Shown piece by piece: positions 11,492-12,655 of a stretch of DNA of 16,685 bases. This stretch comes from Myxococcales bacterium (GTDB lineage Bacteria > Myxococcota_A > Polyangia > Haliangiales > Haliangiaceae), in contig JAYVRN010000521.1 in assembly GCA_043776275.1 (NCBI GenBank), forward strand, positions 1 through 16,685, given 5' to 3'. The position numbers were made by a program, and so were the translations under genes. The number at the start of each line of letters is the position of its first letter. Position 1 is the first letter of the stretch. A model generated the notes under the pieces. It was not told the DNA's origin. It saw nothing but the letters and a program-made list of their open reading frames with translations, and searched no databases.

Positions 11492-12655
11492 ATGGCGGCT
11501 CGGGTGCTATCAAGCGTCATGGTCGCCAGCCCGTTCGACGGCCCCCTCCTCGGGGGTCGCTACCGGCTCGGCCCGCGGCTAGGCAGGGGCTCGCAGGGCG
11601 AGATCTTCCTGGCGCGCGACGACAAGGCGAAGGGCACGGATCCCACCGAGGTGATCGTCAAGCGCCTCACGCCTCGCGGCACGTGGAAGTCGTTCGAGCT
11701 GTTCGAGCGCGAGGCCAAGGTGCTGTCGCAGCTGCGCCACGCCGCCATCCCGCGGTACCTCGCGACCCTCGAGGAGCCGCCCGGCACGTTCAACCTGGTG
11801 ATGCAGCGCGCTCCCGGTGAGGATCTGCGCGAGCTGACCAAGCGGCGACGGCTCTCGCAGCTCGAGCTCAAGGACGTGCTGATCCGCGGGCTCGAGATCC
11901 TCGACTACCTGCACACGCGGACGCCCGCGATCGTCCACCGCGACATCAAGCCCTCGAACCTGGTGCGCGCGCCCGACGGCCGGATCTCGCTCGTCGATTT
12001 CGGCGGTGTGCTCGATGCAGCGCGCGACAAGGGCGGATCCACCGTGGTCGGCACCTTCGGGTACATGGCACCGGAGCAGCTGCACGGTCAGGTCACGCCC
12101 GCCACCGATCTCTACGCCCTCGGCGCGACCATCGTCTCGCTCGCCGGCGGCATCGAGCCCGAGGACGTCCCGCGCAAGGGCCTGCGGATGGATCTCGTGC
12201 GCCACCTGCCGGCCCTCGACCGCACGCTGCGCGCCGCGCTCACGGAGATGACCGATCCGGATCCGGACAAGCGCCCGCAGCGCGCCCGCGATGTGGTCGC
12301 GCTGCTCGCGAAGTCCCAGCCACCCGCGGAGCTCGATGCCCGCTCCACCGCGCTCGCGCGCGCACCCGGATCGAGTGCGCTGGCGAACCGTCAGATGTTC
12401 GCGGACATCCCCGAGCCGATGGGCACGCTGCTCCGGCTCGGCGTGTTGTCGTTCGGATTCGGCGGCTGGGTCGCGATGGCCGGCGTGCGGCTGTCGTTGA
12501 CGATCACGATCGGCGTGCTCGCGCTCCTCGTGTTCCCCGCCAAGGCCGTGCGCAAGCGCGTGGTCGGGGTCGGCCAGGAGCTCGATACGATGCTGCTCGA
12601 GGGCCAGGGCGGCTTCACCGATCTGATGCGCGGCGCGATGGCGCGACGGCGCTGA
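11492..12655 (+). CDS. Hanks-type Ser/Thr protein kinase with C-terminal transmembrane anchor
   Basis: A glycine loop GRGSQGEIF is present. The catalytic lysine lies in VIVKRL. The catalytic loop is [11 protein letters not shown] and GTFGYMAPE (activation segment/APE) are present. Two hydrophobic helices sit near the C-terminus ([20 protein letters not shown] and [14 protein letters not shown]). It lies 47 nt downstream of MVP. An alternative in-frame start is the ATG at 11519. Confidence 0.9.

Follow-up and report, generated by a model that had tools for sequence, protein, structure and literature searches.

A Hanks-type kinase beside a bacterial major vault protein gene probably heads its own conserved gene unit

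Introduction

Does a protein kinase encoded directly behind a bacterial major vault protein (MVP) homologue belong functionally with that protein, or do the two genes only share a boundary? The question is raised by a contig of a Myxococcales bacterium (JAYVRN010000521.1 of assembly GCA_043776275.1), which we analysed whole, as a window of 16,685 nucleotides (nt) with ~70% G+C. On its plus strand a gene for an MVP homologue of 819 amino acids (aa; positions 8985-11444) is followed by a gene for a Hanks-type Ser/Thr kinase of 378 aa (11519-12655), and then by genes for a Cys-rich putative lipoprotein and a divergent GST-like protein.

In eukaryotes MVP is a phosphoprotein and a scaffold for kinases and phosphatases, among them Src, ERK, SHP-2 and PTEN. 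A preliminary description of the window proposed that the bacterial MVP and kinase genes are likewise co-transcribed and functionally tied. If true, a coupling of MVP to a Ser/Thr kinase would provide an experimental handle on bacterial vault-like particles, in parallel to eukaryotic vault signalling.

We reach a different conclusion, to which we assign a probability of roughly 0.7. The kinase appears to be a lineage-wide, strongly conserved, housekeeping-type Hanks kinase of the Kofleriaceae/Haliangiales that heads a unit of its own, and its adjacency to MVP appears to be a by-product of a variable gene block in one sub-lineage.

Results

Adjacency of MVP and kinase genes across MVP loci

We fetched 80 genomic loci encoding MVP relatives, searched them with all proteins of the window, and called and clustered their genes. 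Adjacency counts are based on 79 MVP loci from Myxococcota genomes, the window included. An orthologue of the window kinase (72-98% identical) lies downstream of MVP in 11 of these loci, among which are the window, L001, L002, L003, L004, L016, L018, L020, L051 and L053; in the other 68 the neighbours of MVP are unrelated. L001, from the Myxococcales metagenome-assembled genome (MAG) JADKKI010000072, is the closest relative of the window, at 90-94% nucleotide identity. A neighbour-joining tree of MVP, built with no bootstrapping, unites ten of the 11 linked loci in one clade; the eleventh, L051, has a short MVP gene call and was on that account not entered.

Within this group the junction between the two genes is interrupted in four loci. 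L003 has a gene for a 931-aa CarboxypepD_reg/PDZ protein at this point, L018 and L053 have two small genes each, and L001 has a gene on the opposite strand that is described below. On the other side of MVP, a left flank with tonB is found in the window and its closest relatives, and the genes left of MVP differ in the sub-clade of L016, L018, L020 and L051. Conservation of the adjacency in other MVP carriers had been proposed as a check on the MVP-kinase connection; the arrangement does recur in ten related genomes, but its limited occurrence and its interruptions show that it is neither general nor strict.

Kinase orthologues without MVP and the variable block

The reciprocal comparison used ten kinase orthologues (74-88% identical) sampled on other long contigs. 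None of the ten has MVP within the 0.7-8 kb of upstream sequence that was checked (6-8 kb for nine of them, and 742 nt for L171, which lies near a contig end). The upstream gene is tonB, a 376-415-aa hypothetical, PMSR, Metallophos, TetR or a divergent gene, and these MVP-free kinases lie in core syntenic surroundings with Metallophos, panC and Omp85.

With a kinase 88% identical to that of the window, L165 allows the two arrangements to be aligned. Its gene order is TonB-dependent receptor, exbB, exbD, tonB, and then directly kinase, lipoprotein, GST and Omp85. By blastn, window positions 1-3927 correspond to L165 3041-6936 (82.6% identity) and positions 11502-15016 to L165 6953-10385 (79%), with nothing between the two matches. 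Because homology to L165 stops at 3927 and restarts at 11502, the intervening sequence, MVP included, constitutes a 7.6-kb indel block (3928-11501), flanked by the tonB cluster (1-3929) on its left and the kinase unit on its right. Besides MVP, the block contains two unannotated open reading frames (ORFs), a small minus-strand ORF (5785-6027) and genes for a TPR protein, a small membrane protein and a TPR-AAA+ ATPase. L165 lacks the block, L022 has MVP alone in its place (142 nt past tonB) and L002 has another order of content, a pattern suggestive of an integration or indel hotspot. As a further instance of variation inside the block, L001 has 28 nt in place of window 4859-5790 (932 nt), which carries a 301-aa ORF (4849-5754) with no match in Pfam, NCBIfam or PADLOC.

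The clade-limited adjacency, the lack of MVP near any of the ten sampled kinase orthologues, and the promoter-like element between the two genes (below) all speak against the proposed co-transcription and functional tie of kinase and MVP. The preliminary description had itself named an own promoter or terminator between the genes, and a lack of conservation of the adjacency, as findings that would tell against it, and these are largely what the comparison returned.

The MVP-kinase junction

The intergenic region between the MVP stop and the likely kinase start is 74 nt long (11445-11518, plus strand). No consensus terminator is present in 8300-14100 and there is no T-run in the gap, which bears out the earlier statement that no terminator separates the genes; the 5-bp GGCGC/GCGCC hairpin reported there is also found. 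The gap as a whole folds at -41.5 kcal/mol (z = -2.4) with no U-tract. A search of 8300-14100 for a consensus sigma-70 promoter found none.

The window and L001 have only 11467-11518 of this junction in common. In place of window 11444-11466 (23 nt), L001 has a stretch of 1,148 nt (12460-13607) with a minus-strand DUF481 gene for a 259-aa outer-membrane-type protein (Pfam 2e-16), and homology between the two loci restarts no more than 5 nt from the start codon of this gene. Behind the 1.15-kb difference is either a loss of sequence from the window or a gain of sequence by L001. Because the two loci differ by an indel of this size at this point, the tight spacing of MVP and kinase is not common to the window and its closest relative.

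A conserved element before the kinase start

Alignment of the DNA upstream of the kinase in 20 orthologous loci reveals a single conserved feature, the non-coding 12-nt motif GGTGCTATCAAG (11503-11514, plus strand). It is found in 19 of the 20 loci, where it ends 5-7 nt before the kinase ATG (5 nt in the window), and its presence is independent of whether the upstream gene is MVP, tonB, PMSR, Metallophos, TetR, a hypothetical or a divergent gene. It stands, for example, at 13644-13655 in L001, 6954-6965 in L165 and 7984-7995 in L083. A search of 1.48 Mb on both strands gave 11 exact matches to the 9-mer TGCTATCAA, every one at the kinase 5' site. The motif is lacking in L051, where the 184-nt spacer between MVP and kinase (12460-12643) is largely made up of GC-rich tandem copies (GGGGCGGGGACGGCGCCCCGCGA...).

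The core of the motif reads as an extended -10-like TGnTATCAA, and no conserved -35 box was found upstream of the kinase in the 20 loci. In L001 and L171 the gene upstream of the kinase is divergent, which places a promoter within 47-61 nt of the kinase ATG in these two loci. Because the motif is conserved and independent of the upstream gene, and because of these divergent arrangements, we infer that GGTGCTATCAAG is a putative promoter of the kinase itself, from which a leaderless or near-leaderless mRNA would be made. A similar layout is seen elsewhere in the same genomes: TANNNT is present at -15 to -4 of the start codon in 45 of 342 first genes, whereas a control window has it in 2 of 342, and A/T peaks lie at -12/-11 and -7. 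This excess seems to reflect frequent leaderless mRNAs in these Kofleriaceae/Haliangiales MAGs (loci L001-L084). A leaderless mRNA has been proposed for myxobacterial pexR (PMC12754779).

Two other identities for the motif were considered and rejected. It is not a coding N-terminal extension of the kinase, because the variable 5-7 nt spacing shifts the reading frame and the stop codons of upstream genes abut the motif. It was also examined as the -12 element of a sigma-54 promoter, since TGGC stands at the right distance in the window and L001 (by eye), but conservation of the -24 element does not extend to the other loci.

The kinase and its catalytic core

The ORF at 11492-12655 (plus strand; 387 aa from its first ATG) scores 108.4 bits in Pfam Pkinase (PF00069), where the cut-off is 31.7 (E = 5.4e-31), and covers positions 1-247 of the 263 in the profile, in agreement with its earlier identification as a complete Hanks kinase. 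The matched stretch, residues 24-276 of the 387-aa ORF, defines a catalytic domain at 11561-12319 (plus strand). The catalytic motifs are all present and are invariant in an alignment of 18 orthologues. In the numbering of the 378-aa protein they are the Gly-rich loop (GRGSQG, 22-27), the VAIK Lys (VIVK, 45-48), the alpha-C Glu (FEREA, 62-66), HRDxKxxN (HRDIKPSN, 140-147), DFG (160-162), APE (184-186), the subdomain IX Asp (DLYALG, 197-202) and the subdomain XI Arg (DKRP, 250-253). By profile and motifs, the protein is a Hanks-type Ser/Thr kinase, for which phosphotransfer activity is predicted. The nearest solved kinase domains are those of StkP (6.7e-23), PknA (2.6e-20) and PknB (~5e-19), and none of the NCBIfam equivalogs reaches its cut-off.

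The protein is a new, uncharacterised member of this well-known kinase class. Its orthologue family is likewise uncharacterised and was seen in this analysis only in Kofleriaceae/Haliangiales-type MAGs; among the homologue clusters listed, the best 120 have identities of 74-100% and lengths of 362-412 aa. A neighbour-joining tree of the kinases (~375 aa, 72-98% identity, no bootstraps) was considered as an argument for an ancient adjacency and set aside, as MVP-linked and MVP-free kinases are scattered in it and the tree is too weak. A metagenome scan with the kinase alignment, using the generic pattern HRD[IL]KPSN, gave among the matches listed only kinases that are 26-49% identical. These were of no use for synteny and served as input for the kinase hidden Markov model (HMM) used below.

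The coding sequence most likely begins at ATG 11519, 74 nt past the MVP stop. This assignment is made because of the orthologue alignment, in which 18 orthologues open with M-x-x-(S/A)-PFDGPL, because the database protein for the same contig (P0121) is 378 aa long, and because of the non-coding motif at 11503-11514. The in-frame upstream ATG at 11492 is probably unused. The gap of 47 nt given in the preliminary description is correct as the distance from the MVP stop at 11444 to this upstream ATG, and is superseded by the longer value from the likely start. Inspection by eye shows no Shine-Dalgarno (SD) motif before either of the two ATGs.

The C-terminal membrane anchor

C-terminal to the catalytic domain, hydropathy identifies a hydrophobic membrane anchor at residues ~301-343 (12419-12547, plus strand), which is conserved in orthologues. 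The alignment places behind it a conserved basic tail of ~35 residues (12548-12652, plus strand), and anchor and tail together are invariant across the kinase family. The 43-residue hydrophobic stretch is divided by a conserved Arg324 into a Gly-rich first half with a borderline Kyte-Doolittle value of 1.4 and a clearly transmembrane-like second half with a value of 2.0. Basic residues are present at both ends of the anchor, for which reason a two-helix hairpin is plausible. A helical hairpin of this kind is predicted to leave no extracytoplasmic domain, and the basic tail that follows is probably cytoplasmic. The two C-terminal transmembrane helices of the preliminary description are thus well founded for the second half of the anchor and less so for the first, which is borderline. 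A model by AlphaFold2 (AF2), made with 18 close orthologues, has low confidence (pLDDT, the predicted local distance difference test score, 57.7) and shows a single long helix at 301-338; with so poor a score it was rejected as a basis for a fold search or a topology call.

The kinase has no PASTA or other sensor domain, with only the ~35 residues of the tail past the hydrophobic region, and its score of 96 bits for NCBIfam PknB_PASTA_kin stays below the cut-off of 450. When residues 285-378 were compared with 1.84 billion representatives, only 18 proteins matched, and anchor and tail are nearly exclusive to this family. Many of these are short (59-188 aa) and are probably fragments of this kinase family.

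The kinase-lipoprotein-GST unit

The genes that follow the kinase are closely spaced. The putative lipoprotein gene (118 aa; 12673-13029, plus strand) starts 17 nt past the kinase stop, and the gene for the GST-like protein (13026-13766, plus strand; Pfam GST_N_3 2.5e-13 and GST_C_2 2.3e-6) overlaps it by 4 nt, as its GTG start at 13026 runs into the lipoprotein TGA at 13027-13029. Both features had been correctly described, the latter as a GTGA overlap. An alternative GTG for the GST lies at 13017. The GST is divergent, with a best PDB E-value of 0.003. The lipoprotein has a signal peptide, MPRHALATAILLASSLGA-C, with an L-G-A-C lipobox-like site at residues 16-19 (by eye), a Pro/Thr linker, and nine Cys in all, comprising the lipobox Cys and eight further ones; it has no match in Pfam or NCBIfam. 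Orthologues of it were found by tblastn in six MVP-linked loci. At the same place in the MVP-free loci L083 and L165 there is an unannotated 110-114-aa gene, a candidate counterpart by position. The plus-strand run is ended in the window by a convergent Omp85-family gene (13767-14975, minus strand; Pfam Omp85 8.5e-44), which likewise lies 3' of the GST in L083 and L165.

All 11 MVP-linked loci pair the kinase with the GST, whether or not the lipoprotein is also there, and so do four of the ten loci without MVP (L081, L083, L165 and L166). In the remaining six there is no such pairing and the kinase appears to be on its own. Kinase, lipoprotein and GST form a tightly spaced unit that recurs independently of MVP. 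The possible five-gene unit of the preliminary description is not supported; the kinase more probably heads a separate unit, for which adjacency to MVP is not conserved.

MVP and its other genomic contexts

The MVP homologue (8985-11444, plus strand) is identified by Pfam MVP_shoulder (2.2e-25) and Vault_3 (1e-8), and its ATG at 8985 is preceded by GGAGG. It has 4731 homologues, the best 120 listed of which share the MVP_shoulder and Vault_3 domains. A gap of 210 nt separates MVP from the divergent gene for the TPR-AAA+ ATPase (7434-8774, minus strand), which has a CDC48/FtsH-like core. Four close relatives (L001, L002, L003 and L053) also have the ATPase gene, and in L001, L003 and L053 it is again divergent from MVP, ~210-430 nt away. 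An Rfam scan of the window gave no matches.

Other neighbours of MVP were noted in the wider set of loci. Other Pkinase genes stand beside MVP in L008, L010/L169, L034, L036, L044, L046 and L068; the one in L169 encodes a 471-aa kinase and is divergent, 230 nt upstream of MVP. In eight loci of the Nannocystaceae/Polyangia branch (L031, L033, L035, L037, L040, L050, L059 and L080) MVP is flanked on the same strand by a gene of a 177-208-aa family with no Pfam match (cluster c8, e.g. L040 12532-13101). This family may be a better candidate than the kinase for a conserved MVP partner. A second MVP paralogue of the genomes compared with the window, ~52-54% identical to the window MVP, lies directly 3' of rtcB with rtcR divergent. 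In L073 (6996-12454), from the MAG of L001, the rtcB gene has a Pfam match of 8e-129 and RtcR one of 1e-67 together with a sigma-54 activator domain; the same arrangement is found in L056, L060, L062, L066, L069, L070, L071 and L072.

Outside the phylum, L045, a gammaproteobacterial contig of Candidatus Achromatium palustre, encodes an MVP 61% identical to that of the window (10001-12514), which may have been acquired by horizontal transfer. Upstream of this MVP, on the minus strand, 7277-8789 contains at least six copies of CTAAAGTGGTATCAAAAGGC[CT]GCTGCTCAAGGG spaced by multiples of 108 nt, probably a coding tandem repeat.

Discussion

The comparison suggests a coherent picture of the kinase and of how it came to lie beside MVP. 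The kinase would be anchored to the inner membrane by its C-terminal hydrophobic hairpin, with its catalytic domain facing the cytoplasm and no periplasmic sensor domain. It would be transcribed, together with the lipoprotein and GST genes, from the extended -10-like element a few bases before its ATG, on an mRNA that is probably leaderless, so that its co-transcribed partners would be a Cys-rich lipoprotein of the periplasm or outer membrane and a cytosolic GST-like protein. The adjacency to MVP would have arisen in one sub-lineage, where the space before the kinase is filled by a variable gene block whose rightmost gene is MVP. In the closest relatives this is the space between the tonB cluster and the kinase, and the content of the block appears to change fast and can be absent. 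A functional link between MVP and the kinase is, on this account, probably lacking.

Several observations weigh against this account, and the first of them concern the promoter assignment. The motif ends in A, not in the usual T of TANNNT, and it is not accompanied by a -35 box. Alternatively, it could act within a longer transcript in translation initiation, for instance as an A/U-rich S1 landing site in place of the SD sequence, or it could be an operator, for instance a repressor half-site. In that case the kinase would share its transcript with any upstream neighbour, MVP among them, and this would carry no functional meaning. Such a role would fit with the upstream gene being mostly on the same strand at a short distance (11-63 nt), and the lack of an SD sequence means that some other initiation signal is needed. 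However, with the divergent upstream genes of L001 and L171, transcription has to begin no more than 47-61 nt from the ATG; the TG-n-TA core, at its distance of 5-7 nt, suits an extended -10 element before a leaderless start; and the same architecture is frequent in these genomes. We consider a non-promoter role for the motif unlikely.

The remaining points concern the neighbourhood itself, and would be expected if a genuine MVP-kinase module existed in this sub-lineage, with the two genes co-transcribed by read-through and the kinase phosphorylating MVP, or tethering or regulating the particle at the membrane. In seven loci, the window with its 74-nt gap among them, MVP and kinase are directly adjacent on the same strand at 24-184 nt with no T-run terminator, and for this reason read-through from MVP into the kinase is possible in this genome. 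The neighbourhood persists in the 11 linked loci over ~25% protein divergence (MVP 71-99% identical, kinase 72-98%), and it stayed in place while the genes to the left of MVP changed. In addition, five further non-orthologous kinase families immediately adjoin MVP in other clades, making six with that of the window, and Hanks kinases may repeatedly come to settle beside MVP genes in bacteria.

The strength of that last observation depends on how common kinases are around MVP. An HMM built from diverse kinases identifies 35 kinases among 946 genes flanking MVP, and because kinases make up ~3.7% of the genes in these loci, the presence of one beside MVP is unremarkable. Myxobacterial kinomes are large, with 99 kinases in M. 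xanthus and 317 in S. cellulosum, and Treuner-Lange (2010) cautioned that with about one kinase per thirty genes, kinase proximities in myxobacteria should not be over-read (PMC2887360). The raw enrichment of kinases next to MVP is about three-fold. When collapsed by family it falls to 6 of 104 family-positions at rank +/-1, the family of the window included, against 19 of 710 elsewhere (odds ratio 2.2, one-sided Fisher p = 0.087), a weak excess that is not significant. Set against the module, moreover, are the 68 of 79 MVP loci and the ten of ten sampled kinase loci in which the two genes are not adjacent, the four interrupted junctions, with an opposite-strand gene in the nearest relative, the intact kinase unit that L165 retains in the absence of MVP, and the conserved 5' element that belongs to the kinase. 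These observations make a genuine module quite unlikely. A variant in which, in the Kofleriaceae sub-lineage, the kinase has come to regulate a vault-like particle or to tether it to the membrane, with read-through adding to transcription from the kinase's own promoter, seems to us very unlikely. Finally, it is barely credible that the kinase is a PD-T4-6-like defence kinase in an anti-phage island with the AAA+ ATPase and MVP, since the PADLOC matches of kinase (PD-T4-6, 2e-46) and ATPase (IetA, 4e-30) in and beside this hypervariable tonB-kinase block span only generic Pkinase and AAA cores, MVP, lipoprotein and GST have no PADLOC match, and the kinase, unlike the PD-T4-6 kinases that it resembles at the level of the generic domain, is a membrane-anchored, conserved orthologue (74-100% identical in the best 120 clusters) in core-genome synteny outside the block.

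Among known systems, the kinase resembles the Hanks kinases of other myxobacteria, such as the Pkn family of M. xanthus, with which it shares a complete eleven-subdomain core, the HRDIKPSN loop, a membrane anchor and a kinase-rich genome. It differs from them in its family-specific C-terminal hydrophobic hairpin with conserved basic tail, and in having no sensor domain. The Gram-positive receptor kinases PknB, StkP and PknA provide the closest solved domains and are also membrane-bound, but the arrangement of a single transmembrane pass followed by extracellular PASTA repeats is not found in the window kinase. The likeness to the eukaryotic MVP scaffold is limited to the fact that genes for an MVP homologue and a kinase are neighbours. 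As this neighbourhood is clade-limited and repeatedly broken, and as the kinase unit is intact in L165 with no MVP, the parallel to eukaryotic vault signalling drawn in the preliminary description is not upheld. Bacterial RNA-repair operons that combine rtcR, rtcB and MVP were described by Burroughs and Aravind (2016), as cited in PMC13404743. The second MVP paralogue of these genomes fits that description, whereas the window MVP (paralogue 1) lies outside this context and has neighbours that vary by clade, the kinase being just one of them.

The comparative evidence thus points to the MVP-kinase neighbourhood as a by-product of a fast-changing block beside a conserved kinase operon, in a phylum where about one gene in thirty encodes a kinase. 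What the locus continues to offer is a compact 5' element of very high conservation, the mark of a probable leaderless promoter, and a pointer to the bacterial MVP context that is actually conserved, the rtcR/rtcB-MVP arrangement of the same genomes.

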